Below are positions 2,075 through 49,708 of a DNA stretch of 64,000 bases, in pieces. This stretch comes from Escherichia coli. Its GTDB lineage: Bacteria; Pseudomonadota; Gammaproteobacteria; Enterobacterales; Enterobacteriaceae. The notes beneath the pieces were generated by a model, which ran no database searches, was not told where the DNA came from, and was given only the letters and a program-made list of their open reading frames with translations. A program made the position numbers and the translations under genes. Where the stretch lies: assembly GCF_024700885.2 (NCBI RefSeq), contig NZ_CP117016.1, one strand, 5' to 3'. Within the stretch, counting starts at the first letter, position 1. Each line of letters starts with the position of its first letter.

Positions 2075-2203
2075 GAGATTTCCTCCAGTTTCCTGCCTGG
2101 AGTATAGGCAACGGCTGCGCACTCTTCACCGCTAAATTCAGCAGATTGCGAGACGCCTTCCAAAGAGATTTAAGTGCCGGGCGACAGGCACCCGGCAAAG
2201 GGA

Positions 2204-3223
2204 TCAGAAGTCGGCTTTCAGGACCACTCGGTAGCGCGCTTTACCATCGCGTACATGCTGAATGGCGTCGTTAATTTTCGACATCGGGAACAATTCGGTA
2301 GTCGGCGCAACCTTGCTGCGGGCGGCAAAGCGCATCAGCTTACGCAACTCATAAGGCGTGCCGGTAGCAGAACCAGAGACGCTGCGGTCGCCCGCAATTA
2401 ACGTAAAGGCCGGAACAGACAGCGGCGTGAGAACCGCACCGACCGTATGGAAATTACCGCCGTACGTCAGCGCTTCAAAATAAGGCTGCCAGTCGAGGCT
2501 GACGTTGACGGTGTTGATAATGAGATCAAACTGCCCCGCCAGTGCTTTCAGTGCCTGCGGATCGCGGCTATTCACCACTTTATCGGCACCCATCGCCAGT
2601 ACTTCCTGCTCTTTCGCCGGATTCGAACTAAAGGCTGTCACCTCGCATCCCATTGCGTGCAGAAGTTTTATAGCGATATGCCCCAGCCCGCCAATACCAA
2701 TTACCCCAACGCGGCTGGTGGCAGTGATATGGTGCATTAACAGTGGTTTGAAGACCGTGATACCACCGCACAACAGCGGCCCGGCGGACTCGATATCAAT
2801 ATTTTCTGGCAGTGGAATCACCCATTGCCAGTCCGCACGCAACTTCTCGGCAAAGCCACCGCGATTCATAATCGTCGGCACCGCACCTTGCTCACAGTTG
2901 ATCTGATTACCGCTAATACAGGCATCGCAATGCCCGCAGCTACGCGCCGTCCAGCCAATCCCGACACGCTGACCGACCTGCAAACCTTTATCCTGCGCGG
3001 CGCTCCCGAGCGCCACCACGCGACCAATCACCTCATGCCCGGCAACCAGCGGATATTGTGAAAATCCCCATTCGTTATCGATCATCGACAGATCGGAATG
3101 GCAGATCCCGCAGTAATCCACCTGCACTTCAACATCTTGTGGCTTCAGTTCACCGGGATCGTACTCATAAACTTCCAGTTCGCCGCCTGCTTCTTTTGCG
3201 GCATAGCTTTTTATCATCGACAT
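2204..3223 (-). CDS. ahr: NADPH-dependent aldehyde reductase Ahr (Zn-dependent alcohol dehydrogenase family)
   Basis: Translation carries the zinc-ADH motifs ([22 protein letters not shown]); start chosen at MSMIKSY. Confidence 0.85.
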
Positions 3224-3418
3224 TTTTTGGTCCTTCTCTGGTGTTGTCTGGGAAGTGTAGAGCATGGCAGGGCGGGGTGCCTGGAGTGTGACAAAGGTTA
3301 CACATCGCTGTATGCAATGCTGAAAATTTCAGCACTTAGCGAGGTGCGAGCAAGCTGGCGCTTGCATGGTGGCGTGCGACAGGTATAATCCACAACGTTT
3401 TCCGCATACCTCTTCAGT

Positions 3419-3503
3419 GCCGAAGTGGCGAAATCGGTAGACGCAGTTGATTCAAAATCAACCGTAGAAATACGTGCCGGTTCGAGTCCGGCCTTCGGCA
3501 CCA
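3419..3503 (+). tRNA. leuX: tRNA-Leu (anticodon CAA)
   Basis: 85-nt sequence GCCGAAGTGG...TTCGAGTCCGGCCTTCGGCACCA with a CAA anticodon loop and long variable arm; genomic position after ahr. Confidence 0.9.
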
Positions 3504-4016
3504 AGTCACTAAATTCCTTACAATACAGGTAGTTAGACAATAAAATCTGTCTCTTTTGCCTGTAAGAAATGCTCTGTTATGTCCCTTGAAAAAGCCGCTG
3601 TGGTTGATAGTGGTAATTGGGATGTTAACTCATAGCGGCGTGTAGTTCCAAGCGTCAAACACGTACTGACTCAACTTGAAAGCTATGACGTAGCCACTGT
3701 CTCTAAACAATCCCAAAAACTTTTAGTGAAGCGCATTTTAGCCCGATGCCCCCGTTCTGCCGCTGTCGCGAGACGCCGCAGGGGATAAACAGGTTTATGG
3801 TGGTCACGGTACTTGCAGACCATATGCAAGCTCTGCCAGCGGTTCGGCCTCGCTCCCCTTGGGTACATGGTCATCCTGATAAGCCTCACTAACTGACATA
3901 ACTGTGATGTAGTCGCCAGAGGCTCCGCTTGTTGTCTTACCACCAACGGGGCTTTATGGATTCTATTGCGGTATGTTTGAAAGTGCGCGGGGGTTCATTC
4001 CCGCGCGTCCGGCGCT

Positions 4017-4931
4017 TTATGGTAAGTATTTAAGTATTTCTGCTGCCCAGTTTACACGGTGGATGACACGGGCATGGTGCAAGTTTCCGTCTAGTATTTC
4101 GGCTTTAGTTAGCTGGGATAACTGCTGCCAATTATTGTTAAGTATATAAGTTGCGTTATTACATTGTGAGCTTTCTAGCACGTAAATGTTTTGGCCTGTG
4201 AACCCAAATATCACGTAGCCTTGGAACCCAGCTTGCCCAACCGCTACGAAATCTGGTTTTTTACTATTGATAAGTTCAAGTCTGCCTTCAACAACAGCGG
4301 TATTGCCCTTTCCCCTGATCTTAATAGCTGAAAGGATTTTTGAGCCGATAGTACTCCAAGGCTGTTGACCCTGAGGCAGGAGGCTCCAGTTTAGTTTTAT
4401 AGATTTACTTTTAACGATGGTATTAAGTTGGTCGTCAACAGTTTCGCACAACCCAAAAAGCTCTAAAAAAAGATTAATGCAGTGAGCCACTAACTCTTTG
4501 TTGTTAGCTGTCAAACTTAGCTTTGGAGAGATGATCAACTTCTCCCCTTGAAGATTCTCTACAATCTTTAACTCTATGCTTGGTGGAGGGGTGAGGATTC
4601 TCTTGTAGCGCTTATACTCAATTTCACGAGTGTCAGTAACTTCTTGAGTTGCGCCCCCTCCGATCCATTGCTTTCTAGTCCATGAAATTTGTCTGTATGC
4701 AGTTTCTTTAGGTGCTGTTTTGTCAGGTACTGATTTGCCATTAGCATTGAATCTGGTTATTGGCCCTAAAATCTTGGGGAGGACTTCTTCACCTAAAGCT
4801 CTTTGACTTGAGAAACCAATAGAGTCCGTTTTCCCCGCATCTGGCAAAGAATGTGCAATGTAGATATCACGGCCATCAAAGTTAGGTATGTAATTATCAA
4901 TATTTCGAATACGCTTTTTCTGAATAAGCAT
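4017..4931 (-). CDS. Hypothetical protein, 304 aa, no family recognised
   Basis: Long ORF in AT-rich island DNA; no motif I can assign. Confidence 0.6.
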   Translation of the reverse strand: MLIQKKRIRNIDNYIPNFDGRDIYIAHSLPDAGKTDSIGFSSQRALGEEVLPKILGPITRFNANGKSVPDKTAPKETAYRQISWTRKQWIGGGATQEVTDTREIEYKRYKRILTPPPSIELKIVENLQGEKLIISPKLSLTANNKELVAHCINLFLELFGLCETVDDQLNTIVKSKSIKLNWSLLPQGQQPWSTIGSKILSAIKIRGKGNTAVVEGRLELINSKKPDFVAVGQAGFQGYVIFGFTGQNIYVLESSQCNNATYILNNNWQQLSQLTKAEILDGNLHHARVIHRVNWAAEILKYLP

Positions 4932-4994
4932 GGATCGTTCCTTTTGATTTTATCTTACTGTTTACATAACCAACCAAGCCGGGCACAATCGAGC

Positions 4995-5094
4995 CGTTAG
5001 AAACGATAGTGAGGCTAACAATCGTTATGAGTTTGCAGACTCATGGCGGTCATGCTTCATAGACCGGATTCACGCAGGTGACTCCGGTTTTTTT
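4995..5094 (+). ncRNA. Candidate small structured RNA with intrinsic terminator
   Basis: Three consecutive hairpins by eye (aacgat/atcgtt; atgagt/actcat; ccgga/tccgg) ending in a 7-T run at 5088-5094; possible sigma70-like promoter (tttaca-17 bp-cacaat) upstream. Confidence 0.3.
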
Positions 5095-5906
5095 ATGCCC
5101 ATCATTTATACATGAGCACAACATATAGGGTGTGTTAATAAGATTACCCCCTACATGTTCAGCATTCTAGTTAGGATTCTTTGCAGTACAAGGGGTGATT
5201 TTGAGGTTAAATTGAGGTTGTCAAAGGGAAATTTCGACCAACCCTACGTGCCGTAAGGCTTAGGCTGTATGTCAATGTTTCAGAAAAAAAATGAAAATTT
5301 GATCGAGTGCTGATTTCTTTAGCACGAGAACATGAGATCGAACCAAAATATTGCAAAGTTTTGAACAAAACTTGAGCTGCCTCGTGTCTCCATAGCCAAG
5401 ACGAATGCAGTTTAAATAAGCTAAGTCAGCTCTCAAAAGTCCTTTATGACCCGAACCAAAAATTGTACCTCTTAAACCCCCACCGCAAGCGGCTCTCCGG
5501 GGTTTGTGCGCGTGGAGTAATGCGATTGTACTGGGTATGTGCGCACAACCCTCTACAAGCCGCATTCTACCGTTAGCCTATAGCTGAATCCCCGGCTTGA
5601 AAAATTGCACGCTTATGGTTGCCCCTCCCTCAACTGTATAGCTCGCCCGCGCCCCCGTGCGCATGTGCGTGCCCGCGCGTCAGGGGTCGCTGAGAAAACC
5701 CTAAGATTTTGCTCATCCGAGACAACCGTTGCAGGCGCGCGTTGCCGGGGCACACTGTTAGTGTTTGATGGTGTCATCAATCGACCGTTTTCTGGCACCT
5801 CCCAATCGCACGCTTTCACACTGTTGGAAAAATAGCCTTGGCTTTTCTGGCAGGCCATCCTAATGTTGGCCTCGTTTTCTGGCAGGGGTCAGATGGGGAG
5901 ATAACA

Positions 5907-6467
5907 ATGGCAACTTTTGGCTACGGACGTGTTTCGACATCGCAGCAGGATACTGAGAACCAACGGCTGGAGCTTGGGCAGGCTGGGTGGCAAATTGATT
6001 ACTGGTTTGCCGATGTTGTTAGCGGGAAGGTTCCGGCAATGCAACGTAAAGCATTTTCTGAAATGCTCAATAAAATCCGCGATGGTGAAACGTTGGTGGT
6101 AGCGAAGCTTGATCGTCTGGGGCGTGATGCGATTGACGTCCTGCAAACGGTAAGGGCGCTGGCTGACCGTAATATCAAGGTTCTTGTCCACCAGCTTGGT
6201 AACACAGATCTCACTTCTGCCGCTGGGAAGTTGCTATTATCTATGCTCGCCGCGGTTGCGGAGATGGAGCGTGATCTGCTGATTGAGCGCACTCAGGCGG
6301 GACTATCACGAGCAAAAGCCGAAGGTAAGAAATTGGGCAGACCTCCTAAAATCGCGTCAGAAGCCCGTAGAGAGATTTTAGAGAAAAAGAATAGCGGTTT
6401 GAGTATCAGTGCGTTAGCGCGTCAATATGGCGTTTCAAGAGCGACTGTAGCAGCTATTACCGATTGA
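5907..6467 (+). CDS. Small serine recombinase (resolvase/invertase family)
   Basis: N-terminal GYGRVSTSQQ catalytic-serine motif and C-terminal HTH (LSISALARQYGVSRATV); start at MATFGYGRVS with SD ggggag. Confidence 0.85.
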   Translation: MATFGYGRVSTSQQDTENQRLELGQAGWQIDYWFADVVSGKVPAMQRKAFSEMLNKIRDGETLVVAKLDRLGRDAIDVLQTVRALADRNIKVLVHQLGNTDLTSAAGKLLLSMLAAVAEMERDLLIERTQAGLSRAKAEGKKLGRPPKIASEARREILEKKNSGLSISALARQYGVSRATVAAITD

Positions 6468-6480
6468 ATATGGAGAGTTT

Positions 6481-7326
6481 ATGGCTTACACAGCAACTGT
6501 TATCCCTGTAATGATTGCTTCTCCTGGTGATGTCGCTGAAGAGAGACAAGTCATTCGTGAAATGATCCATGAGTGGAATGATATAAATTCAGCTCGTTCA
6601 AAAGTAATGTTGACACCAATTGGATGGGAAACTCATACATCACCCGAATTAGGAGTTAGGCCTCAGAAGTTGATTAATCAAAGATTATTAGTAGATTGTG
6701 ATTTATTAATCGGTGTGTTTTGGACTCGTCTAGGCTCACCGACTGGGAACGAGGCCAGCGGAACAGTCGAAGAAATCCACCGTCATTTGAATGCGGGAAA
6801 ACCGGCAATGATTTACTTTTCCTCAAAGCCTGTTGCCCCTGAAAGCCTTGATAGAGAACAATATGAGTCTCTTAAATTGTTCAAAACTGAGTGCATGCAA
6901 AAGGGATTGATAGAGTCTTTTAATGACTTATCTGATTTCAAAGACAAAGTCCGTAGGCAACTTTCGATAATTATTTCTAGTAGCCCTTATTTGTCTTCTC
7001 TTATATCTACCATTAACAATTCTCCTGATGCGAATACAAGTCAATCTTTGCCAGAAAGTAATTTGTCCGCCGATGCACTCAGTTTGCTGAAATTGGCATG
7101 TGTCGATGATAGCGGAACAATTTATGTGATAAGGCATTTAGGTGGCACGGATATTCAAGCGGGAAATCAATCCTTTGGTGGAAGTTCGGCTAGAGAGGTA
7201 GCCCGTTGGGAGGGCGCACTTAACGAACTGTTATCCTTTGATTATGTGATTGAAAGAGGGGCAAAAGGACAAATGTATTATGTTACTCATAAAGGCTGGA
7301 CATTTCTTGAATCTTTAAATGAATAA
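6481..7326 (+). CDS. Hypothetical protein, 281 aa; N-terminal motif resembles DUF4062/TIR-like domains (tentative)
   Basis: Starts 13 bp after the recombinase stop with its own SD (ggagag); N-terminus VMIASPGDVAEERQVI fits a strand-SxxD-x-EER pattern; C-terminal half unassigned. Confidence 0.6.
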   Translation: MAYTATVIPVMIASPGDVAEERQVIREMIHEWNDINSARSKVMLTPIGWETHTSPELGVRPQKLINQRLLVDCDLLIGVFWTRLGSPTGNEASGTVEEIHRHLNAGKPAMIYFSSKPVAPESLDREQYESLKLFKTECMQKGLIESFNDLSDFKDKVRRQLSIIISSSPYLSSLISTINNSPDANTSQSLPESNLSADALSLLKLACVDDSGTIYVIRHLGGTDIQAGNQSFGGSSAREVARWEGALNELLSFDYVIERGAKGQMYYVTHKGWTFLESLNE

Positions 7327-7386
7327 TTAAATGCGAGGCCATTACATAAGTTTATTTTTGATGTGAGGGTGAATTCCCTCACATTT

Positions 7387-7881
7387 TTATTCGAAAGAGG
7401 CCGCAATGACTTCTCCTGTTTTTGCGTTGAAAACACAAAAGTATTGAAGCGGAGCTAGCATCCCCAAGCCGTTAACTACCTTAGCTTGTTGCCCAAATGC
7501 CTGAATAATCTTCGCATTCTCATCGTGCCAGAGATAAGTATTAAATACAGGCGCTTCGCTTTCTTGCCACACATGGCGAAACTTCGCTTTCTCATCCATT
7601 ACCTTTTTGCACTCCCTGACCGGGTTATGGTGCGTTTTCGCATAGCATTCCGGGTTGTCATCTGCACATACGATATCTTTTCGTGCTGTCTGATGCTCAG
7701 CACCTACAGCAGAAAAGGCGCATACGCCCAGCACCAATGAGAGAGTGCCCAGAGCACCCCATACAGTTGCGCGTAGCGTGCTGATGTGCTGCTTTGATAC
7801 AGCATGGGCAACTACACTATAACTGGCCCAGCTAATCGCGGCTCCCGCTGCAATCGGTAGTAAAAAGTCTGCTCCCGTCAT
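7387..7881 (-). CDS. Hypothetical membrane protein (two predicted TM helices plus Cys-containing soluble domain)
   Basis: ORF with hydrophobic N-terminal segments; start set at MTGADFLL with SD gaggga. Confidence 0.5.
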   Translation of the reverse strand: MTGADFLLPIAAGAAISWASYSVVAHAVSKQHISTLRATVWGALGTLSLVLGVCAFSAVGAEHQTARKDIVCADDNPECYAKTHHNPVRECKKVMDEKAKFRHVWQESEAPVFNTYLWHDENAKIIQAFGQQAKVVNGLGMLAPLQYFCVFNAKTGEVIAASFE

Positions 7882-8121
7882 GATTCCCTCACTTTCCAAA
7901 CCACATCGCGCCTGATAGCGAACGCTGGTGACGCCCAACCGATGATGATCATCATACTTGTTGGGTTTTAAATGTCACCATTGGTGTTTGTTTTGAATCA
8001 AAAAGGATTGTCATGATACAGCCGATGAATGCTAGTGACTAAGCTCGCTGACGTGAGATTGGATTCAAAATATCTCATATGGAGCGTGGCCTTACAGTGG
8101 TCAAAATTGCACATTCAGTGC

Positions 8122-8586
8122 ATGAAAAAATCCCTGAGAATACAGTTTGGCGAGCGGGTAAAAGAACTGCGCATTGCCACCGGATTGAGCCAGGAGGCCT
8201 TTGCCGATCGGTGCGGGTTTGCACGTAGTTATATGAGCAGAATTGAACGTGGTGGCTCTAATGCGTCTCTGGATGCGATTGAGGTGCTGGCTAACGCTCT
8301 GAGCGTTGAGCCGTGGCAGTTGTTAGCGCCTGGCCCATCTGAAGATAACGACTCGGAACTGTTGGTTCCATACGCAGCCGATGGTTCCTGTTTTCACCCC
8401 GGTTTGGCGAGCACCCGTGATGGCTCGTTTGGCGTAGGTGATAAAGCGGCTCAGAAGCGTTTTGGCACGTTTGCTGAAGCTCTTGAGTATCTTCGTAGCA
8501 TGGAGACAGCAAAATGGCGTAGGCCTAATCCTAGCGGCAACTGGGGTATCGTATCAGCGGTTCGGTGGGACAAACTGAGAAAGTAG
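8122..8586 (+). CDS. XRE-family HTH transcriptional regulator with unassigned C-terminal domain
   Basis: N-terminal HTH (LRIATGLSQEAFADRCGFARSYMSRIERG); start at MKKSLRIQ. Confidence 0.6.
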   Translation: MKKSLRIQFGERVKELRIATGLSQEAFADRCGFARSYMSRIERGGSNASLDAIEVLANALSVEPWQLLAPGPSEDNDSELLVPYAADGSCFHPGLASTRDGSFGVGDKAAQKRFGTFAEALEYLRSMETAKWRRPNPSGNWGIVSAVRWDKLRK

Positions 8587-9076
8587 CTCAAGTGTAAGTT
8601 TATGAATTTTCATGCTGTATGGATGAACAGTATTCATTAGATGCTGATAGTCTTATGTTTCATCAGCCCTTTGTTTCTATAAGAGTGAATAAAACAGCAA
8701 AATGCGGGTGCGTTACGTAGGCGTTACGGTGGCGTTTCGCTTTGGCTCTTAATGGCTTAATTCATATAAATAACATTGAGTTAAATAGTTATTCTGAACA
8801 AGGTCTGCCGGGGTCTAACTGGTTTCAAAATCCGAACGCAGTGGCGTTTATTCAACGTCCACATAGCTGACAAATGTTCTTTCCTCCCGACTCGGCAGAC
8901 CTCCAGAAACATTAAAAGGCAGGTATGGCACGTTGATGTTTTATGCCGCCACGAACACTCGGTTTGATTCCGTCCAGCGGATCAAACTTAATATGTAGCC
9001 CCTAGAACAAAAAGGTCCTACGATTGCTCTCTTAACAGCTAACAGGAACGTGATTACAGCAGGTTATAGAGACTTA

Positions 9077-9101
9077 GGTTCGAGTCCGGCCTTCGGCACC
9101 A
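9077..9101 (+). repeat. Direct repeat of leuX 3' end (att core copy)
   Basis: 25/25 identity to 3479-3503. Confidence 0.85.
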
Positions 9102-9115
9102 AAAGTATGTAAATA

Positions 9116-9138
9116 GACCTCAACTGAGGTCTTTTTTT
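9116..9138 (+). terminator. Native leuX Rho-independent terminator, displaced 5.6 kb from the tRNA
   Basis: Hairpin gacctc-aact-gaggtc followed by TTTTTTT, immediately after the second copy of the tRNA 3' end. Confidence 0.6.
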
Positions 9139-9287
9139 ATGCCTGAAATCCAGTGTTTATCTATCTTTCCCGCTATATTAACTCTCTCAAGGTCAACCGA
9201 TATCAACGTACATCTACCAACATATGTTGGTACAGATGATGGTATTTCCGGTTCGATAATGCTTGTACCAACAGGGAGGGAATACGC

Positions 9288-9878
9288 ATGGCATTAACAG
9301 ATATCAAAGTCAGAGCAGCCAAGCCAACGGATAAGCAATATAAGCTGACTGATGGTGGCGGTATGCATCTGCTTGTCCATCCAAATGGTTCTAAGTACTG
9401 GCGTTTGCAGTACCGTTATGAGGGAAAGCAAAAAATGCTGGCACTTGGGGTTTATCCTGAAATCACACTAGCGGATGCCAGAGTACGTCGTGACGAGGCG
9501 CGTAAGCTGCTTGCGAATGGCGTCGATCCGGGAGACAAAAAGAAAAATGATAAGGTTGAACAGAGTAAAGCACGAACCTTTAAAGAAGTCGCGATTGAGT
9601 GGCATGGCACCAATAAAAAGTGGTCTGAAGATCACGCCCATCGTGTGCTAAAAAGTCTTGAAGATAATCTTTTTGCAGCGCTTGGTGAACGTAATATCGC
9701 TGAGTTAAAAACTCGAGATTTATTAGCACCTATTGTTCCTTTAACCATCCGCAATGGCCAACGGTTTACAGAGCATAATACGAATAGCCGTAGAGCCAGC
9801 CAGTTACGGTGGTCGCGATGGTGTGTCCGCCAGAAAATCACCACGAATACCAGAATCGCGGCACTGACCAGAAAATGA
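9288..9878 (+). pseudogene. P4-type tyrosine integrase (IntB-like), N-terminal ~150 aa only
   Basis: MALTD.KVRAAKPTDK...YWRLQYRYEGKQKMLALGVYPE matches the P4-integrase N-terminal arm; similarity is lost near 9740 and the catalytic domain is absent. Confidence 0.75.
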
Positions 9879-10406
9879 TAAACAGGAAACACGGGGAGGT
9901 TCACTTTGCTTTCTCCTGTAGTATTTTCTGTAGGTTCTGAACCGGTTCGAGCGGGGTTGTGAGGCTGATGGCAATCCCCGGGCTCTTCCTGCATGTTACA
10001 CTGGTACTGCAACAGGGGGCCTTCGCTCCTATGACATTACTCAGTATTTTCACTACTACACCCCATCTGCCATCCATAACAACCGATTCACCCCCTCGGG
10101 AGGCGTTGTTGCCCGTCACCCGGACAGGCATCGTTATGGACTTCTCTTGTTGCACGATCGATCAATTGTTATGCATGCTGACACCACTACCCCGGTGGGT
10201 ATGACCGATGCCTTTCTCACTCTCTTCCCGGTCATCGTCGGCCTTCCCCGTTATTGTGGCGTGTCGGCACCATCGACGGCATTTCGATGGCTGCTCAGTG
10301 TTCACTCACGTTACGGCCCGCATAACCCATTGACTTCCTGAAGAAGTCGTTTCAGGGAGAGATTCAGCCCTTTTGTTACCTCCTGGACCGCTTCCTGTCC
10401 TTCCAG

Positions 10407-10681
10407 TTGGAGCGAGAGTTAGTCGGGGCGGACTTTCACCGACGGAAAGATCGTGCATTTCAAGGCACACACAACAATATCTGCGAGCGTGCTATCCGTC
10501 CGGTCGTTATGGGACGAAAGGCCTGGTTGTTCGCTGGTTCACTGATGGCCGGGAACCGAGCGGCACAGATAATGAGCCTTCTGGAAACAGCAGTCTGGAG
10601 CCACATGCTTGGCTGACGGACGTCCTAACGCGTCTGCCCGGAGTGGCCGGAGGAGAGGTTGGCAGAGTTACTGCCTCTTGA
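10407..10681 (+). pseudogene. IS66-family transposase (TnpC) C-terminal fragment
   Basis: ERAIRPVVMGRKAWLFAGS motif in one frame, continuation in another. Confidence 0.55.
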
Positions 10682-11045
10682 GGGCTTTACCTTCTTTGGG
10701 TAAGTGATACCTGCCGTCAGGTGTTTGTGCACCGGGCCATAACCTGCAGTTGGGAATTGAACGCCTGACAACAGGAAATGAGCTAGAGCAGTAAACACGC
10801 GGGCTGACAATGGGTCAGAATATGAGTCTGCCCGGCGTTATTCTTGGGGTCAGTACTTCAGATCCAGCCTCCGGTACCAGACTAGCTAGCCCCTACGCAA
10901 CCAAATAAATCAACCATCGTAAGAGTGCAATCGTTCATATACACTGCCGGTGATGGGCGGAAAAATGCGTTAATGTTGAGTTCCTCGAACCCTTACCAAT
11001 TAAGGGACATAGCCAGATACGCAACTGGCTGATGCAAGCAGTCTG

Positions 11046-11358
11046 ATGTCTTTAGATTCGCTGGCCTGCGGGCATGACAATGTCAAACAGTCAAAGATTG
11101 TGGCGTTGACGGTCAGTCTGGGTCGTAAAAACTTCCTGTTCTTCGGCTCTGACCATGGTGGTGAGCGGGGAGCGCTACTGTACAGCCTGATCGGGACGTG
11201 CAAACTGAATGACGTGGATCCAGAAAGCTACCTTCGCCATGTGCTTGGCGTCATAGCAGACTGGCCGGTCAACCGGGTCAGCGAACTGCTTCCGTGGCGT
11301 ATAGCACTGCCAGCTGAATAACACATCCCCGTCAATACGGCCCTCGCTGTACGCTTAC
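11046..11358 (+). mobile_element. IS66-family 3' remnant (TnpC C-terminus plus terminal repeat ending ...GTACGCTTAC)
   Basis: GRKNFLFFGSDHGGERGALLYSLIGTCKLNDVDPESYL; the same end sequence recurs at the other IS66 copies. Confidence 0.65.
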
Positions 11359-11434
11359 GATTAGTGGTGGTGTCTTCCAGTGCGAGGAGCAGCGGATGAG
11401 CCTCACATGCCCTTGCAGTGGCGGTAAATCCGGC

Positions 11435-11808
11435 TTAGGCAATGGCTTCCGGGGACACAGACGGGTTACGTATCAGGCGGTACGCACTTTCAACCTGAGC
11501 AGTGGAGTGGGATGATTTCACAATAGAAAGACCTGCATGCTGAGCGAGAGAAGAGGCCAGTGACACAAGGCGTCGTGTACGACGCGGATCACCGAGACGG
11601 GCATGTCCAAACTGCTCGTTATCCCATGAATAACAATCAGAAAGTACCATAACAGACCCGAAGAAAATGAAATATAAGAGAAGATCAACGGGTGAAGAAA
11701 AAGTTCAAAAAATCGCTGCCGGGGAGGAAGGAAACTACCGAATGGAAAGAGTCCCCCTAAAGCAGACTGACAGACATCACAAATCCCCGGGTGGGGATTT
11801 GTGTATAA
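11435..11808 (-). mobile_element. IS4-family (IS50-like) 5' remnant: transposase N-terminal fragment plus terminal inverted repeat
   Basis: ARLGDPRRTRRLV...AYRLIRNPSVSPEAI resembles the Tn5/IS50 transposase N-terminus; CTGTCTCTTATACACAAATCC end at ~11787-11808. Confidence 0.55.
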
Positions 11809-12113
11809 GAGACAGCCTGATAGGGGGGCGCATACATTATGCATACATACTCTCGGATATTGTAAAAGTTTTTTATATAATTACTAAGTTAGCTACCATC
11901 AATAAAATATTGACGTTAGCAGGTAACATCAACTTAATATATAAAAATATTCTTAGGTGAAAGTAACTGTTCAAGATAAAATAAAATCATCGCTTAAAAA
12001 GAAAAACACTCTCTTTGTTATATACGTACTCTGATAAATGCCAGATAAAACTATTAATTTTCATAAAAATATAATGCCATATATTATGATGCTATACATC
12101 TTACATATTCAAT

Positions 12114-12878
12114 TCAGATATATTTTAATTTTTCCGATAGTTCTTGACACGCATCAAGAACCAAAGTTGAATAATATTCAATTTTTTCTTTAGGTATCTG
12201 AATTTCCACGCCACTAATGCTGATAGCTGCAATTACTTCACGAGTCTGATTAAATACCGGAGCAGCAATACAATAAATTCCCGGTGAATCCTCTGCGTTA
12301 TCAAAAGCCCATCCACGTTCACGAATACGTGCAAATTCCTGTATTAGATCAGATTTACGAGTGATAGTTGTTTGCGTAAATCGTGGCAACGTTTCCTCAG
12401 GCAACAATGTGTCAATGACGTCTTGAGGTAACCACGCACATAAAGCCTTACCAACTCCAGAACTATGGAGTGGCAACTTCTTGCCTACCCACGTTCTGAT
12501 GCCAATTGGTTGTGTACTCTCGAGTTTCAAAATATAGATTGGAGCGACTTCATCGAGAATGCCCAGATGGCAGATAAGATCAGTACTGTCTCTCAGTTTT
12601 TCTAGAACCGGCCTCGCTACCTTACTGATGTCAAACTGCTCCAGAGATCGATTCCCCCATTCATACAATTTCAGCCCAAGAAAAAAACGCCCTCTTTCCT
12701 GACGTAACAGATGATGTTCGACAAGGGCATTCAGTAAAGATGATGTGCTGCTTTTTGGCAGATCCAGATCCTGCTGGATCTGGCTGAAGGTGGCGCCTGG
12801 AGAGCTAAAAAGGTAATTGCAGACTCTGACAGTTTTATCGAGTGCTGGTACCGATGTTCTGATGGTTTGATTATTCAT
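12114..12878 (-). CDS. IclR-family transcriptional regulator
   Basis: Family call from HTH-plus-ligand-domain organisation; start chosen at MNNQTIR (alternative upstream ATGs at 12920 and 12950). Confidence 0.7.
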   Translation of the reverse strand: MNNQTIRTSVPALDKTVRVCNYLFSSPGATFSQIQQDLDLPKSSTSSLLNALVEHHLLRQERGRFFLGLKLYEWGNRSLEQFDISKVARPVLEKLRDSTDLICHLGILDEVAPIYILKLESTQPIGIRTWVGKKLPLHSSGVGKALCAWLPQDVIDTLLPEETLPRFTQTTITRKSDLIQEFARIRERGWAFDNAEDSPGIYCIAAPVFNQTREVIAAISISGVEIQIPKEKIEYYSTLVLDACQELSEKLKYI

Positions 12879-13117
12879 AAAAAAATATGATTCCTTACAA
12901 TACTGAATAGTATACCCCATTCCCCCTTGATGCGCAGCGGCGCTTAGCACACATATTATACATGGCCTCCGCGTACCGGCATGCCTCTATAAACCTGACT
13001 TATTTCACACTTTTCATATCGCATTGTAAAAACATTTGACATGCAAAACCTGAATTTGATTCACTTTATTCAGCATAAAGAACTTATGTTCCATATACAG
13101 AACTTAGTGAGAGTGAT

Positions 13118-14017
13118 ATGTTGACAGCGTTTAGAGGTATTTTCCCGCCAGTTCCTACAATTGTTGACGCACAAGGGAAACTAGATAAGGCTGGCATGGC
13201 CCGGATGATCGACCATGTTTTAGAAAATGGTGCAAACGGGATGTTGATCCTTGGCAGTGGGGGAGAATTCTCACAATTTTCTTCCCAGCAACGAAAAGAG
13301 ATAGCTGCATTTTGCTTAAGTCATGTAGATGGCAAAGTGCCTGTTCTGGTGGGGATCGCCTGCGCGGGAACTGCAGAAACTATTGATTTAGGACATCATG
13401 CACAGGAGCACGGAGCTGATGGTGTGATGGTGGTGAATCCGTATTATGCAAAACTCAGCGATGATGCCCGGTTTATGCATTACAAATCTATTGCCGATTC
13501 ACTTAAAATTCCAGTGTTTCTCTATAACTTTCCTGATCTGACCGGTCAGGATATTGGGCTTGAGGTCATTACCCGGCTGGCCCGGGAAGTTCCAAATATC
13601 GTGGGTATCAAGGATACCATCGATAATATCAGCCATACCCGGGAAGTCATCAACCGTGTACATGCTTTTCGTCCGGATTTCATTATATTCAGCGGATATG
13701 ACGAATATATGCTGGATACCCTGTTACTGGGCGGCCATGGTGGTATTCCGGCGACATTCAATTTTGCTCCAAATATCACACGTGGTATTTATCAGGCCGT
13801 TATGGAAAATGATCTTGATAAAGCACGTTCTTTTCAGCAACAACTGGCAAAACTGTCTCCGTTATACACACTGGAGCAGCCTTTCTTTGGCGTGATAAAA
13901 ACTGCCATCAAACTGAGTGGACTGGACATATCTACTGCAGTTATGGCACCGGCTCTTCCGCTCAGTGATGACAAGGTCGCCAGGGTGAAAGCCATTCTGG
14001 AACACATTCACCAGTGA
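13118..14017 (+). CDS. DapA/DHDPS-family aldolase or dehydratase
   Basis: Family-level similarity (GSGGE, PVFLYNFP, KDT motifs) in the 299-aa translation. Confidence 0.7.
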   Translation: MLTAFRGIFPPVPTIVDAQGKLDKAGMARMIDHVLENGANGMLILGSGGEFSQFSSQQRKEIAAFCLSHVDGKVPVLVGIACAGTAETIDLGHHAQEHGADGVMVVNPYYAKLSDDARFMHYKSIADSLKIPVFLYNFPDLTGQDIGLEVITRLAREVPNIVGIKDTIDNISHTREVINRVHAFRPDFIIFSGYDEYMLDTLLLGGHGGIPATFNFAPNITRGIYQAVMENDLDKARSFQQQLAKLSPLYTLEQPFFGVIKTAIKLSGLDISTAVMAPALPLSDDKVARVKAILEHIHQ

Positions 14018-14033
14018 TTACGAGGATCGTAAG

Positions 14034-15551
14034 ATGAATAAGACTCCGATACTCAAATTAAATAACTCGGATGATGTCGTTATTGCCAGGACAGAACTTC
14101 CTGCCGGAAGCTGGCTGGAATCTGAAAGTATGGAAACACGTGACCTTATTCCGGCAGGGCACAAAATTGCTCTTCGGGATATTCCGGCCGGCAGTGCCGT
14201 TAAACGCTATGGACAGATAATCGGTTTTGCGACCCGTGACATCCGACAGGGCGAACATATTCATGTGCATAATCTCGGTATGGGGAGTTTTGAGCGTGAT
14301 TATGCCTGGGGGATAGACAGTCATCTTCCGGAAAAGGATGTTCATCAGGATACCTTTATGGGGATCCGCAGAAAAGACGGACGGGTGGCAACCCGTAATT
14401 ATATTGGTGTACTGAGTTCTGTAAACTGTAGTGCAACCGTAGTAAGGGCAATTGAAGATCATTTCCGTACCCGTGGTCTCAGTGATTACCCTAATGTGGA
14501 TGGTATTGTTGCCCTCCCACAAAGTTTTGGTTGTGCCTTTGGCTCTGACAGCGAAATGATGAAAGTCATGCGGAGGACAATGGCAGGCTATGCCACGCAC
14601 GCGAACTTTGCCGGGATCGTGATCGTGGGACTGGGATGTGAATCATTCCAGATTAAGGACATGATGAATGCCCACGGATTACATGAAAGTCCTGTATTCC
14701 ATACAATGACTATTCAGGAAAGCGGCGGAACACGTAACGCTATAGAAAAAGGTATTTCCTTCATTCTCGACATGCTCCCGGAAGCCAACAATGTCAAACG
14801 AGAACCAGTTCCGGTATCAGAAATCATTCTGGCTCTTGAGTGTGGCGGCTCTGATAGCTATTCAGGAATTTCCGCTAATCCGGCTCTCGGGTACGCAGTT
14901 GATCGCCTGGTTCGCCAGGGAGGAACGGCTATTCTGTCGGAAACATCGGAAATTTATGGAGCAGAACACCTTCTGACACGCCGTGCCATTAGTCGCGAAG
15001 TTGGCGAGAAACTAATCCGCAGAATTAAGTGGTGGGAAGAGTACTGTAAACGTACAGGGAGTGAAATGAATAACAACCCTTCTGCAGGTAATAAAGCGGG
15101 GGGACTGACCACTGTTCTGGAGAAATCGCTGGGAGGGATAGCAAAAGCTGGTACAACCAGCTTAATGGATGTATATGAATATGCTGAACCGGTGACAGCA
15201 AAAGGGCTTGTCTTTATGGATACCCCCGGATATGACCCGATGGCAGTAACCGGACAAATCGCCGGAGGAGCCAACCTGCTGTGTTTTACCACGGGCAGGG
15301 GATCTGCCTTTGGCGCAAAACCCACTCCTTGTCTGAAACTGTCAACCAATAACGCACTATGGCAACGGCAGCGCGACGACATGGATTTAAACTGTGGCAC
15401 GATTGTTGATGGCGAAGAAACAATAGAACAGGTTGGAGAACGTATTTATCAGAGAATTATTGAGCTGGCTTCAGGTCATCGTAGTCGAAGTGAAGAGCTG
15501 GGTTATGGGAGCCAGGAATTCGTTCCCTGGATAATGAACTCAATCATGTAA
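14034..15551 (+). CDS. UxaA/GarD-family sugar-acid dehydratase (SAF N-domain)
   Basis: 505-aa protein with altronate/galactarate dehydratase architecture. Confidence 0.7.
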   Translation: MNKTPILKLNNSDDVVIARTELPAGSWLESESMETRDLIPAGHKIALRDIPAGSAVKRYGQIIGFATRDIRQGEHIHVHNLGMGSFERDYAWGIDSHLPEKDVHQDTFMGIRRKDGRVATRNYIGVLSSVNCSATVVRAIEDHFRTRGLSDYPNVDGIVALPQSFGCAFGSDSEMMKVMRRTMAGYATHANFAGIVIVGLGCESFQIKDMMNAHGLHESPVFHTMTIQESGGTRNAIEKGISFILDMLPEANNVKREPVPVSEIILALECGGSDSYSGISANPALGYAVDRLVRQGGTAILSETSEIYGAEHLLTRRAISREVGEKLIRRIKWWEEYCKRTGSEMNNNPSAGNKAGGLTTVLEKSLGGIAKAGTTSLMDVYEYAEPVTAKGLVFMDTPGYDPMAVTGQIAGGANLLCFTTGRGSAFGAKPTPCLKLSTNNALWQRQRDDMDLNCGTIVDGEETIEQVGERIYQRIIELASGHRSRSEELGYGSQEFVPWIMNSIM

Positions 15552-23519: not shown

Positions 23520-24896
23520 AGAACCTGAAACAGTCAGACTGTATCTTGGATTTTACAAACTCTTATTCGGGGATTTTAGCCCCATGACGATTTACGCAGT
23601 GAGCTGGCCTCTTTCTACGTGCAGGTATTAGCGCATTCTGGCTTCCCTGAATTCTTTTTCGAGGATCACTCATTCCGTGTCTGACTGCTTCAGGGTTTAA
23701 TTTTGCTTCTGCTGACTGAATGATGATTGGGCAGCAAGTGCAATATCCCACATAAATCCAGTCAACTCACGAGCCACCGCCGTAATGGCTACTTGTGATT
23801 TTTTCCCTTTTGCTGTCAGAGTTCGGTAACGAGAACACAATCGTTGTTGAGCTTTCCATGCAATATCTTTGGAATATTGTGTTACAGAGTCCGGTCGGTA
23901 ATATATAAGCCATGCACCAACTTTTGCAGGTGTACGATAAGACCAGGCGGCTTCGTAAAGCAGACGTCTCAGTTCGCTGTTTCCAACTTTTGTTATTCCT
24001 CTGGGACGAATACTGTTTCCACTGGAATATTCACCTGGCACCAGTCCCAGAAAAGCCATGAGCTGTTTGGGATTGGAAAATCGCGAAAAATCACCCAGTT
24101 CAGCAACCAGGGTTATTGCAATTAGCTGACCAACACCTTTTAGAGCCTGCAACTGGCAGACCAGATTGCACAGAGACCACTCAGGTAACAGGCGAGATAT
24201 TTCCTGGTCGAGTTGAAGTATGCGATCTTCAATCTGCTCCAGACTTTGACAATAGTGTTGAAAAGCAATCTGCTGAGATGGCTGACTAAATGATTGATTA
24301 GCTAACCAGGTTCGATGTTTGCCGGTCCAGTGCTTCCCTGCATAACGTTTGTCTGTTCGCAATAGCATGCTCAGAATTCGCTGTCGGGCAACTCTGCTGT
24401 CTCGTTTAGCTGCTGCACGGGCTCTGATTAGATCCCGCATAGCTTCATGAGTCAGGTCAGGGATCCAGACAGGGGTAAGTTCACCAGCCCGCAGTAACCT
24501 GGCAAGAGAAATTGCGTCCCGATGATCATTTTTGATTCTGTCTGTCGGTGATTTTGGTATCCGGGAAGGGGCAATAACCTGGAATTTTATATTCATCGCT
24601 GTGAGTTGATGATATAGCCCAAAACCACAGGGGCCAGCCTCATAGCAGGAAAGAATGTTTCCGTAAAGTCCCTGCAATTTCTGAAATAATCGACGTACAG
24701 CCTGGGCTTCGTTGTTAATCGTACCATAATAACGAACTTCGCCAAGCCGTTCAGGTGCAGCAATAGCAACCGCCAACGTTTCTTTATGTACATCCAGCCC
24801 GATGTAAGCTGCAATATTTTCCGAATGCATAATGACCTCCTCTGGAATATCCCACCAATGCTATAGTGAGTATATAAAGGTCATACCATCTACCTG
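23445..24896 (-). mobile_element. IS110-family element (~1.45 kb) inserted in IS66 tnpC
   Basis: Boundaries inferred from where IS66 tnpC homology breaks and resumes; carries the 377-aa transposase. Confidence 0.65.
23697..24830 (-). CDS. IS110-family transposase
   Basis: 377 aa; N-terminal YIGLDVHK (DEDD-type) and C-terminal LKGVG.LIAITLVAELGDFSRF motif. Confidence 0.75.
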   Translation of the reverse strand: MHSENIAAYIGLDVHKETLAVAIAAPERLGEVRYYGTINNEAQAVRRLFQKLQGLYGNILSCYEAGPCGFGLYHQLTAMNIKFQVIAPSRIPKSPTDRIKNDHRDAISLARLLRAGELTPVWIPDLTHEAMRDLIRARAAAKRDSRVARQRILSMLLRTDKRYAGKHWTGKHRTWLANQSFSQPSQQIAFQHYCQSLEQIEDRILQLDQEISRLLPEWSLCNLVCQLQALKGVGQLIAITLVAELGDFSRFSNPKQLMAFLGLVPGEYSSGNSIRPRGITKVGNSELRRLLYEAAWSYRTPAKVGAWLIYYRPDSVTQYSKDIAWKAQQRLCSRYRTLTAKGKKSQVAITAVARELTGFMWDIALAAQSSFSQQKQN

Positions 24897-25124
24897 TTCT
24901 TCGGTTCGGATCATGGAGGAGAGCGGGGAGCGCTGCTGTACAGCCTGATCGGGACGTGCAAACTGAACGGAGTGGAGCCAGAAAGCTACCTCCGCTATGT
25001 CCTTGACGTCATAGCCGACTGGCCGATAAACCGGGTCGGCGAACTGCTCCCCTGGCGCGTAGCACTGCCGACTGAATAACACATCCCCGTCAATACGGTT
25101 CTTGCTGCACGCTTACAGTTCGTA

Positions 25125-27829: not shown

Positions 27830-29086
27830 ATGGATTTCTTTCGTTTTTTGATGAGCGATGTACTTTCCGAACCCGCAGTGCTGGTCGGTTTAATCGCCCT
27901 GATTGGCCTGATTGCACAGAAAAAACCGGTAACCGAATGCATTAAAGGTACCGTCAAGACCATTATGGGGTTTGTGATTTTAGGCGCAGGGGCGGGTTTA
28001 GTTGTGTCGTCACTGGGTGACTTCGCAAACATTTTCCAGCATGCCTTTGGTATTCAGGGTGTAGTGCCGAACAATGAAGCCATTGTTTCCGTAGCGCAGA
28101 AAAGCTTCGGGAAAGAAATGGCGATGATTATGTTCTTTGCGATGGTTATCAACATTATGATTGCCCGTTTCACACCGTGGAAATTTATCTTCCTGACCGG
28201 TCATCACACGTTGTTTATGTCGATGATGGTAGCGGTAATTCTGGCAACAGCAGGCATGACCGGCATTACGCTTATAGCCGTTGGCTCTTTGGTTGTTGGC
28301 GTGGCAATGGTCTTTTTCCCGGCTATTGCGCATCCGTACATGAAGAAAGTGACCGGTTCTGATGACGTTGCCATCGGCCACTTCTCAACATTATCTTATG
28401 TATTGGCCGGTTTCATCGGCAGCAAGTTTGGTAATAAAGAGCACTCGACTGAAGACATGAATGTGCCGAAAAGTCTGCTGTTCTTGCGCGACACGCCGGT
28501 TGCTATCTCTTTTACCATGAGCATAATTTTCCTGGTGACGTGCCTGTTTGCGGGTGCAGATGCGGTGAAAGAGCTTAGCGGTGGTAAAAACTGGTTCATG
28601 TTCTCTATCATGCAATCCATTACCTTCGCAGCTGGCGTGTACATCATTCTGCAGGGTGTGCGCATGGTGATTGCGGAGATTGTCCCGGCATTCAAAGGTA
28701 TTTCAGACAAGCTGGTTCCGAATGCCAGACCTGCTCTCGATTGCCCGGTCGTCTTCCCTTACGCACCTAACGCTGTACTGGTTGGTTTCCTGAGTAGCTT
28801 TGCTGCAGGTTTAATCGGTATGTTCACGTTGTATCTGCTGAACATGATCGTGATTATTCCTGGTGTGGTGCCGCACTTCTTCGTAGGTGCAGCTGCAGGG
28901 GTATTCGGTAATGCAACGGGTGGACGTCGTGGTGCGATTTTGGGTGCCTTCGCTCAAGGCTTGCTTATTACCTTCCTGCCAGTATTCTTATTGCCGGTGC
29001 TGGGTGATATTGGTTTTGCTAACACCACCTTCAGTGATGCTGACTTTGGCGCACTGGGTATTTTGTTAGGGATTATCGTTCGCTAA
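27830..29086 (+). CDS. PTS EIIC permease (SgaT/UlaA family)
   Basis: 418 aa polytopic membrane protein immediately after IIA and IIB. Confidence 0.75.
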   Translation: MDFFRFLMSDVLSEPAVLVGLIALIGLIAQKKPVTECIKGTVKTIMGFVILGAGAGLVVSSLGDFANIFQHAFGIQGVVPNNEAIVSVAQKSFGKEMAMIMFFAMVINIMIARFTPWKFIFLTGHHTLFMSMMVAVILATAGMTGITLIAVGSLVVGVAMVFFPAIAHPYMKKVTGSDDVAIGHFSTLSYVLAGFIGSKFGNKEHSTEDMNVPKSLLFLRDTPVAISFTMSIIFLVTCLFAGADAVKELSGGKNWFMFSIMQSITFAAGVYIILQGVRMVIAEIVPAFKGISDKLVPNARPALDCPVVFPYAPNAVLVGFLSSFAAGLIGMFTLYLLNMIVIIPGVVPHFFVGAAAGVFGNATGGRRGAILGAFAQGLLITFLPVFLLPVLGDIGFANTTFSDADFGALGILLGIIVR

Positions 29087-49602: not shown

Positions 49603-49708
49603 CACTATTTTATCCCTGTTGAATTTGGTTAAGCCGGTGCAGACGCGCCGGGAAACGCACACCTGAACCGGCACAATAAAATACAATACAACCCCCTGTT
49701 ACTGGAGA
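49603..49708 (+). repeat. Second copy of the 106-bp repeat, directly abutting the IS66 end
   Basis: Identical to 35432-35537. Confidence 0.8.

Follow-up and report, generated by a model that had tools for sequence, protein, structure and literature searches.

The tRNA gene leuX is the attB site of phage P4, and intB sits directly 3′ of it. For islands of the leuX type, stabilisation through damage to the integrase or to the repeats has already been described (PMC9686529). Islands of the PAI II536 type likewise occupy leuX, carry a P4-like integrase at their head and are flanked on both sides by copies of the leuX 3′ end. In K-12 MG1655, the head of KpLE2 (also "cryptic prophage PR-Y") runs leuX-intB-(IS2)-yjgX-yjgZ, where intB is full length but inactivated by a TAG at codon 18, and IS2 lies between intB and yjgX. 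As for mobile elements inside one another, the group II intron Sr.md.I1 of Sinorhizobium medicae, related to RmInt1, resides within an IS66 transposase ORF (PMC4615759).

Here, we analysed the leuX-proximal part of an island in a 64,000-nt stretch of an Escherichia coli chromosome (contig NZ_CP117016.1), hereafter the window. We propose, with a probability of about 0.85, that 9077-11815 is the head of a leuX island of the KpLE2 type, without function and made up of a stack of fossils that accumulated in several steps (Table 1). The K-12 head belongs to the same island family at the same site: 9077-9734 is 99.7% identical to it, and 9735-11122, with the truncated yjgX, the intron fossil and the first IS66 remnant, is collinear and 97.4% identical. 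Beyond the shared 124-bp backbone, K-12 continues into IS4 and nanXY, whereas the window continues into a second IS66 remnant, an IS50-like fragment and a cargo of IclR, DHDPS-like and UxaA genes. In comparison with PAI II536, no virulence cargo was seen in the window, the integrase is dead, no distal repeat lies within the window, and the repeat measures 26 bp here versus the 18 bp reported there. The full arrangement is present in 447 genomes, and RefSeq/PGAP already marks most of the pieces as pseudogenes, an annotation found in hundreds of genomes; the locus is ordinary genome decay. All four sequence features named in a preliminary description of this DNA exist near the positions given there, far above chance, with some boundaries shifted. 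Of its interpretation, the truncation of the integrase, the immobility of the island and the probably later arrival of the upstream segment stood, while the IS elements as the cause and a freed att site did not.

Table 1. Annotated features at the leuX-proximal end of the island (positions in the 64-kb window).
Feature	Position	Strand	Evidence
leuX 3′ 26-bp repeat, second copy = att core GGTTCGAGTCCGGCCTTCGGCACCAA	9077-9102	+	exact repeat of 3479-3504
native leuX-downstream sequence and intB upstream region	9103-9287	+	collinear with K-12 and LWY6, in which leuX immediately precedes it
intB′, codons 1-149 of 421	9288-9734	+	Pfam; identity to intact intB
deletion junction, 2,164 bp missing versus LWY6	9734-9735		alignment
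yjgX fragment, 56 codons	9735-9903	-	PGAP in identical genomes; translation
group II intron, nt 1-567	9904-10470	-	Rfam RF02003
IS66-family remnant 1 (= K-12 yjgZ)	10471-10996	+	Pfam; intact plasmid IS; K-12 collinearity
island backbone, 124 bp, common to K-12 and LWY6	10997-11120		collinearity
IS66-family remnant 2, last 238 bp of the element	11121-11358	+	Pfam; copies in the window
IS50-like (IS4 family) left end, nt 1-452	11364-11815	-	Pfam; ATCC 25922 copy

The ORF at 9288-9878, which starts 186 bp beyond the att core copy, matched Pfam Arm-DNA-bind_3 (PF13356) at residues 3-87 (E 1.7e-29) and Phage_int_M (E 6.8e-12). Its arm-binding domain is complete, some half of the central domain remains, and the catalytic domain is gone. 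Integrase homology had been thought to stop near 9740, after some 150 aa. Alignment to intact intB located the breakpoint at 9734 with both references (nucleotide identity up to this point 99.85% with LWY6 and 99.70% with K-12), so that 149 of 421 codons are kept in a true truncation, with a single amino-acid difference (K73N) from LWY6. The ORF encodes at most 196 aa, the last 47 of which are antisense yjgX read out of context. Intact LWY6 IntB (421 aa) carries Arm-DNA-bind_3, Phage_int_M and Phage_integrase (PF00589), the last at residues 207-383; it is 58.8% identical to phage P4 Int over 97% of the length (E 1e-160) and has the same three-domain architecture. Neither Pfam nor tblastn detected a PF00589 catalytic domain with its active-site tyrosine in the window, which also has no P4 genes. 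Therefore, the window holds a fragment of a P4-type integrase gene and no functional member of the family. A full-length integrase recovered by correcting a frameshift had been named as the finding that would overturn the truncation; however, tblastn of intact IntB against the whole 64-kb window returned residues 1-149 only, and thus no frameshift correction can rebuild intB.

Relative to LWY6, the deletion comprises 2,164 bp (L005 6836-8999) and takes out intB from codon 150 to codon 421, the spacer between intB and yjgX, and roughly 1 kb of yjgX. At the junction, intB runs directly into antisense yjgX; the microhomology there amounts to 1 bp, and IS sequence is absent. The preliminary description held that repeated IS insertion and IS-mediated deletion had cut the integrase and so fixed the island. 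IS fragments are indeed abundant within 2 kb, the IS2 of K-12 between intB and yjgX falls in the interval deleted here, and the second IS66 remnant with the IS50-like fragment shows nested insertion followed by deletion. However, adjacent deletions mediated by an IS keep the IS at one end, and none is found at this junction; the closest IS sequence begins 737 bp beyond it and is common to genomes with full-length intB. Moreover, 9735-11122 is collinear, with identical junctions and 97.4-97.8% identity, with K-12 and LWY6, in both of which intB is full length. Given that such genomes also contain the yjgX fragment, the intron fragment and IS66 remnant 1, this debris is older than the truncation and not its cause; what is particular to the present island variant is confined to IS66 remnant 2 and the IS50-like fragment. 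We therefore consider the IS mechanism improbable. As read from the junction sequence, intB lost its catalytic domain by one plain deletion, with no visible IS action.

The same deletion junction was found in 451 of 5,426 complete genomes, with an allele conserved at 99.8-100%, and is usable as a lineage marker. Strain Ec-U3 (H37), considered as an undeleted ancestor on account of its annotation, was found to carry the same deletion, annotated with other boundaries. A synthetic 3.7-kb query for an intermediate, with undeleted yjgX and the window-type junction of IS66 remnant 2, IS50-like fragment and IclR, matched 0 of 5,426 genomes.

The roughly 0.6 kb downstream of the integrase homology had been called unassignable. 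The stretch is real, and it can be assigned to a yjgX fragment and the 5′ part of a group II intron. The gene yjgX is a phosphoethanolamine transferase pseudogene, and the fragment translates into the same residues with which the yjgX pseudogene of LWY6 starts. Pfam returned nothing for the ORFs at 9632-10012 (minus strand) and 9959-10204 (plus strand), and a scan of RNA families alone explained the stretch: RF02003, for the conserved RNA structure of domains 1-4, was matched over the full model at 10306-10445 on the minus strand (66.3 bits against a gathering score of 49, E 1e-13). The intron 5′ end reads GTGTG at 10470-10466 on the minus strand, as in the group II GUGYG, and the remaining nucleotides 1-567 span this end, domain 1 onward and the first few codons of the reverse transcriptase (RT), the 3′ remainder being deleted. 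The catalytic domains D5-D6 (RF00029) gave no match at E<=1 in 8900-12200, and tblastn with the RT of a relative found no intron-encoded reverse transcriptase in the window. The fragment is 90.3% identical over 567 nt to copies on Enterobacter plasmids, and a full-length relative occurs on an Azotobacter plasmid, where its protein has RT and maturase domains and no endonuclease domain.

The intron is inserted antisense at a conserved site of an IS66-family tnpC. In this respect it resembles introns of the Sr.md.I1 type, which also sit in an IS66-family transposase gene, while only the 5′ 567 nt are left here. On balance, we favour the view that this intron lineage homes specifically, in antisense, into the codons for the "NN" motif that is conserved in IS66-family TnpC, which would make it a retroelement that disables a transposon family. 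One such event would then survive as a fossil in about 28% of E. coli genomes; K-12 MG1655 is among them, and there it forms part of the "uncharacterised protein" ORF yjgZ. Once the intron fragment is recognised, this K-12 orphan ORF is explained as a chimera in which antisense intron is joined to a frameshifted IS66 tnpC. For yjgZ, a 2025 preprint devoted to hypothetical proteins of K-12 was able to assign neither a regulator nor a GO category (doi 10.1101/2025.03.20.643886). We found no description of an intron fragment in K-12 or KpLE2 in an incomplete search of the literature, in which an earlier record may have been missed. The fragment in the yjgX-yjgZ interval, unannotated so far also in K-12, is a small gain in annotation.

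Two different IS66-family remnants had been recognised, and they are distinct: each has its own right end and there is no nucleotide similarity between them. Remnant 1 had been placed at 10407-10681. It is an IS66 TnpC remnant as claimed, but both limits have moved, since 10407 lies 64 bp inside the intron and 10681 ends only the coding part. It holds tnpC codons ~448-527, in which 10 bp are deleted and 1 bp is inserted, then the 3′ non-coding tail, and closes with a true right inverted repeat (...CCCTTAC) at 10996; its left edge is the intron insertion site and no deletion breakpoint. DDE_Tnp_IS66 (PF03050, E 5.6e-8) and IS66_C (PF13817) were both matched, and the remnant is 85% identical to a complete IS66-family element of plasmid pZ1323CEC0016-3, for which the inverted repeats and an 8-bp target duplication were read from the sequence. 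For remnant 2, given as 11046-11358, the end was exact and the start lay too far left, the first 75 bp being backbone shared with K-12; collinearity with K-12 and LWY6 ends at 11122, at the start of this remnant. It encodes the C-terminal 70 aa of TnpC (DDE_Tnp_IS66_C, PF13817, E 1.3e-17), has its right inverted repeat (...CGCTTAC) at 11358, and is 98.7% identical to an inverted copy at 47315-47538 and 86% identical to 24879-25116. Thus 526 and 238 bp are left of elements of ~2.7 kb, with one end each; no tnpA or tnpB homology and no left inverted repeat was found in 9000-12200. The backbone between the two remnants gave no Rfam match.

The IS50-like 5′ end had been correctly identified as to element and type of end, while its bounds (11435-11808) required extension on both sides and assignment to the minus strand. 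The fragment matched Tnp_DNA_bind (PF14706, E 1e-18) and is 96% identical (437/453) to nt 1-452 of a 1,539-bp IS of ATCC 25922 (L006 1413-2951). It includes the terminal repeat CTGTCTCTTATACACAAAT..., with a 19-bp IS50-like end resembling CTGTCTCTTATACACA at 11797-11815, and covers transposase codons 1-95, among which codon 72 is a nonsense codon; PGAP describes it as "internal stop; missing C-terminus". In comparison with IS50/Tn5 of the IS4 family, 452 bp of a ~1.5-kb element and one end are present, and the DDE catalytic domain and the second end are absent. The true right end of IS66 remnant 2 abuts an internal point of the IS50-like element, which indicates that IS66 inserted into the IS50-like element and that a deletion followed. 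None of the three IS fragments can transpose. Five base pairs (11359-11363) separate IS66 remnant 2 from the IS50-like fragment.

We then considered excision. The 26-bp leuX core occurs in two copies only in the 64-kb window (up to 3 mismatches allowed; 0 expected by chance), both upstream of the island, and the second copy divides an upstream 5.6-kb segment from the older island. A 15/18 match to the att core in an 18-mer search, at 28713-28730 on the minus strand, lies inside a PTS transporter gene and was taken as chance. Given that the window has no other integrase homologue and no third 26-bp repeat, the island is probably unable to excise alone. The immobilisation proposed earlier is supported, with the whole catalytic domain lost. 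With a truncated integrase and no distal repeat within the window, the locus does not belong among excisable tRNA islands.

The 5.6-kb segment had been regarded as a newer element. Among the 451 genomes with the deletion junction, only 59 also have the segment adjoining, and therefore it is probably a later arrival, judged by these genome counts. In strain R12, which lacks the segment, leuX directly abuts the same truncated intB, and 9077-15399 is 99.84% identical to the window. R12 and Ec-U3, the latter with the segment, differ from the window at the same sites, nearly all within 1 to ~2100; a divergent ahr allele travelling with the segment, as expected of import by recombination, was rejected, because the two strains share their differences from the window. 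In the opposite order, the segment would have entered leuX first, the intB island would have entered the distal att of the segment, and the segment would have been lost later in most lineages. Three points suit that order: where an element is already resident, site-specific integration can take place at either of its att copies; in genomes that lack an intB island, leuX is occupied by relatives of the segment; and the segment sits on two different left-flank haplotypes. However, the segment would have to have been lost from ~390 of the 451 genomes with the deletion, even though no integrase is present in either element, and the adjacency of leuX and intB seen in R12 is the widespread state, found in K-12 and LWY6-type genomes. 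We consider this order unlikely, and retain the segment as the probable newcomer.

The preliminary description further supposed that immobilisation left the att site free for the segment, which we do not support. When an element integrates into the 3′ end of a tRNA gene, the tRNA gene is rebuilt, and leuX therefore remains available as a target irrespective of whether the resident integrase still works. Moreover, intact relatives of the segment have their own 636-aa tyrosine integrase next to leuX, while the segment in the window is an integrase-less mosaic.

We propose the following history. In an ancient step common to K-12 and LWY6, a group II intron retrohomed antisense into an IS66-family tnpC beside yjgX. 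A later deletion took the 5′ end of yjgX together with the 3′ part of the intron and ~2 kb from the left of the IS, leaving the order yjgX′, intron′ and IS66 right end. In the branch with the IclR/DHDPS-like/UxaA cargo, the backbone became joined to the last 238 bp of a second IS66, which, as its abutting right end implies, had inserted into an IS50-like element before a deletion. Either before or after this, the 2,164-bp deletion with 1 bp of microhomology fused intB codon 149 to antisense yjgX. These two steps may also have been one complex rearrangement, or the whole variant may have been imported by recombination. Lacking a recombinase and, in the window, a distal att repeat, the island would since have been inherited vertically. 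Finally, as the nested distribution suggests, a minority of these genomes would have received the 5.6-kb mosaic between leuX and the island, either through a 636-aa integrase of its own that has since been lost or through homologous recombination of the flanking DNA; its arrival would not have depended on the state of intB. The locus is a textbook case of a tRNA-linked island fixed in the chromosome once its recombinase was lost and has little biological weight, while the base-accurate map of the decay layers at leuX tells ancient events, shared with K-12, apart from lineage-specific ones.

It is very improbable that the 196-aa product is a retained arm-binding protein that disturbs P4-type recombination at leuX. 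The gene still has its native start and upstream region and an entire Arm-DNA-bind_3 domain, and the allele is highly conserved over the 451 genomes; however, recent common descent predicts such conservation, no promoter-like site was found in 9050-9950, and the C-terminal 47 residues are antisense read-through. That a frameshift or misjoin makes an intact integrase look truncated has nothing in its favour beyond the caveat of the preliminary description itself and a negligible probability, as antisense yjgX follows 9734 in every frame, tblastn finds no integrase residues past 149 in the window, and the identical junction recurs in 451 independently assembled complete genomes. The terminator-like site downstream of leuX, a stem at 9115-9132 followed by a T run, is the leuX terminator.

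The head of the leuX island is a case of ordinary decay that is already annotated, and the small new item in it is a group II intron fossil, common to K-12, with its bearing on the K-12 reading frame yjgZ. The observations of the preliminary description held overall, with boundaries corrected and its "unassignable" stretch fully assigned; of its interpretation, the truncation, the probably newer segment and, as a fair reading, the immobilisation stood, while the IS-caused cutting and the freed att site did not.

We aligned the truncated integrase gene, intB', with the full-length intB genes of LWY6 and K-12 MG1655. Nucleotide identity from 9077 was 99.85% to LWY6 and 99.70% to K-12 and ended at 9734, leaving codons 1-149 with a single substitution relative to LWY6 (K73N), in agreement with an earlier estimate of about 150 aa ending near 9740. 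The ORF at 9288-9878 has Pfam matches to Arm-DNA-bind_3 (E 1.7e-29) and to the opening portion of Phage_int_M, its last 47 codons being antisense yjgX, and RefSeq labels intB' [quoted passage not shown]. The LWY6 product is 421 aa long with arm-binding, central and catalytic domains and shares 58.8% identity with phage P4 integrase across 97% of its length, which bears out the "P4-type" label. Relative to LWY6, 2,164 bp (6836-8999 of the LWY6 locus) are absent, and the junction joins GCACCTATT directly to GTTCCTTT, with one ambiguous T. Of 5,426 complete genomes, 451 contain a full match to a 300-bp junction probe and 447 the entire 9000-12100 arrangement, indicating that the truncated intB is a real inherited allele. 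A sequencing frameshift hiding a full-length integrase is thereby excluded, and tblastn with the intact LWY6 protein as query gave no further integrase sequence in the window. Compared with the window, the 5′ end of K-12 intB (2676-2740 of the MG1655 locus) lacks 1 bp just ahead of the ATG and has TAG for AAG at codon 18, which explains why that gene is listed as a pseudogene despite its full length.

Features of the leuX island head (window coordinates)
Feature	Position	Strand	Remarks
tRNA-Leu(CAA) leuX	3419-3503		preceded by lptG, yjgR, ahr
5.6-kb segment, middle part	3970-5774		differs from both the ~8-kb leuX elements and the 3505-3969 match; includes 304-aa ORF
5.6-kb segment, right part	5775-9076		resolvase-family recombinase, DUF4062 protein, membrane protein, HTH protein; matches ~8-kb leuX elements
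yjgX phosphoethanolamine transferase pseudogene piece	9735-9903	-	56 codons
Group II intron 5′ end	9904-10470	-	567 nt, unannotated, between yjgX and yjgZ; also at about 6792-7358 of the MG1655 locus
IS66 remnant 1	10471-10996		85% to complete ~2.8-kb IS66-family element
Backbone, no assignment	10997-11120		124 bp, common to K-12 and LWY6
IS66 remnant 2	11121-11358		PF13817, E 1.3e-17; right end ...CGCTTAC
Spacer, origin uncertain	11359-11363		5 bases
IS50-like fragment	11364-11815	-	nt 1-452 of 1,539-bp IS4-family element of ATCC 25922, 437/453 identity

Repeated IS insertion and deletion had been proposed to have cut the integrase. No IS-derived sequence was found at the intB/yjgX deletion junction. 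Moreover, the yjgX truncation, the intron fossil and IS66 remnant 1, a block carried by about 1,528 E. coli genomes, have identical junctions in genomes with full-length intB (LWY6, and K-12, where the codon 18 stop inactivates it), indicating that these layers predate the integrase loss and are unrelated to it. The junction to different cargo (IclR, DHDPS-like, UxaA, PdxA, MFS) is formed by remnant 2 and the IS50-like fragment, which in this data set always occur together with the intB deletion; undeleted yjgX joined to this cargo junction was found in 0 of 5,426 genomes, so either event may have come first. An ordinary deletion, with no visible part played by an IS, cut the integrase.

The roughly 0.6 kb thought unassignable proved to be the yjgX piece and the intron 5′ end. 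The stretch 9735-11122 is collinear with K-12 (97.4%) and LWY6 (97.8%), and the full Rfam model RF02003 (group-II-D1D4-4) was matched at 10306-10445 (66.3 bits, gathering score 49, E about 1e-13), with the same hit in LWY6, K-12 MG1655 and an E. albertii plasmid. The intron strand opens with GTGTGCC at 10470 and is 90.3% identical across 567 nt to Enterobacter plasmid copies, which then run into a reverse-transcriptase N-terminus where the window changes to yjgX. An Azotobacter plasmid has a full relative, 76% identical, whose product is a 428-aa RT/maturase in which no endonuclease domain was found. The 5′ exon ends in ...RTTGTTGT, at the same site in IS66 tnpC, in E. coli and in the E. albertii, Enterobacter and Azotobacter plasmids; this is antisense to conserved Asn-Asn codons in clearly different tnpC genes, indicating that remnant 1 begins on its left at an intron homing site and not at a breakpoint left by deletion. 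For an RmInt1 relative, group II introns within IS66 transposase ORFs have been recorded (PMC4615759). A literature search, which may have missed an earlier description, found no publication on the K-12 fragment. K-12 yjgZ (7261-7590 of the MG1655 locus; window 10373-10681), an uncharacterised protein ORF, begins 98 nt into the antisense intron and then runs through the out-of-frame IS66 tnpC tail; this composition suggests a chimeric junk ORF and not a gene.

Comparison with other IS copies mapped the IS breakpoints and upheld, within corrected limits, the two different IS66 remnants and the IS50-like 5′ end. Remnant 1 corresponds to the last 80 codons, 3′ tail and right inverted repeat of an element that lies in an F-type plasmid, between its traX and traI genes, and can be read there with both repeats and the 8-bp target duplication. 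In the window copy, a 10-bp deletion together with a 1-bp insertion accounts for the frameshift that PGAP records. K-12 and LWY6 part from the window exactly at remnant 2. In the IS50-like fragment, the end (CTGTCTCTTATACACAAAT) is Tn5-like and codon 72 is a nonsense codon. That a true IS66 end adjoins an internal IS50-like position implies insertion of the IS66 into the IS50-like element, with a later deletion joining the backbone to the interior of the IS66. At 47315-47538 remnant 2 has an inverted counterpart, 98.7% identical, which is the right end of an IS66-family copy (47315-49700, minus strand) with tnpC (47352-48590) internally deleted; the two ends could be traces of an old inversion or deletion about 36 kb in extent.

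The terminal 26 bp of leuX (3479-3504) are repeated once, at 9077-9102. Behind this second copy come the native leuX terminator (stem 9115-9132) and then the region upstream of intB, the order found directly after leuX in K-12 and LWY6. Therefore, 9077 onward is the head of the older KpLE2-type island, and 3505-9076 is an insertion between it and leuX. No third copy was found in the 64 kb at up to 3 mismatches; an 18-mer search for the att core added only a 15/18 match at 28713-28730 (minus strand), within a PTS ascorbate-family transporter gene, which we took as chance. As no catalytic domain, other integrase or distal att copy was found in the window, the island can fairly be regarded as immobilised within these 64 kb.

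The 5.6-kb segment adjoins the deletion in only 59 of the 451 deletion-bearing genomes, and in R12 leuX directly adjoins the same intB', with 99.84% identity to the window across 9077-15399. These nested counts and the segment-free R12 favour arrival of the segment after the deletion-bearing island, as first described. The further suggestion that loss of the integrase left the att site free is not supported: leuX is regenerated at every integration, and the intact segment relatives (DJH_137urine, 23CRST024) are elements of ~8 kb that carry a 636-aa tyrosine integrase of their own beside leuX. The window segment is a mosaic that has lost this integrase; its first 465 bp (3505-3969) match DJH_137urine sequence on the far side of the distal att copy, and the 304-aa ORF had no Pfam match. 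The functional leuX now lies 5.6 kb from its native terminator (9115-9139), which remains with the second att copy, and the plus strand just past leuX (3504-3700) showed no terminator-like site. Against R12 and Ec-U3, the island proper is about 99.8% identical, and the left flank shows about 81 differences in 1-2100 (lptG 3′ end, yjgR) and almost none in ahr-leuX (2101-3504), a pattern indicating a probable recombination breakpoint near the yjgR/ahr boundary.
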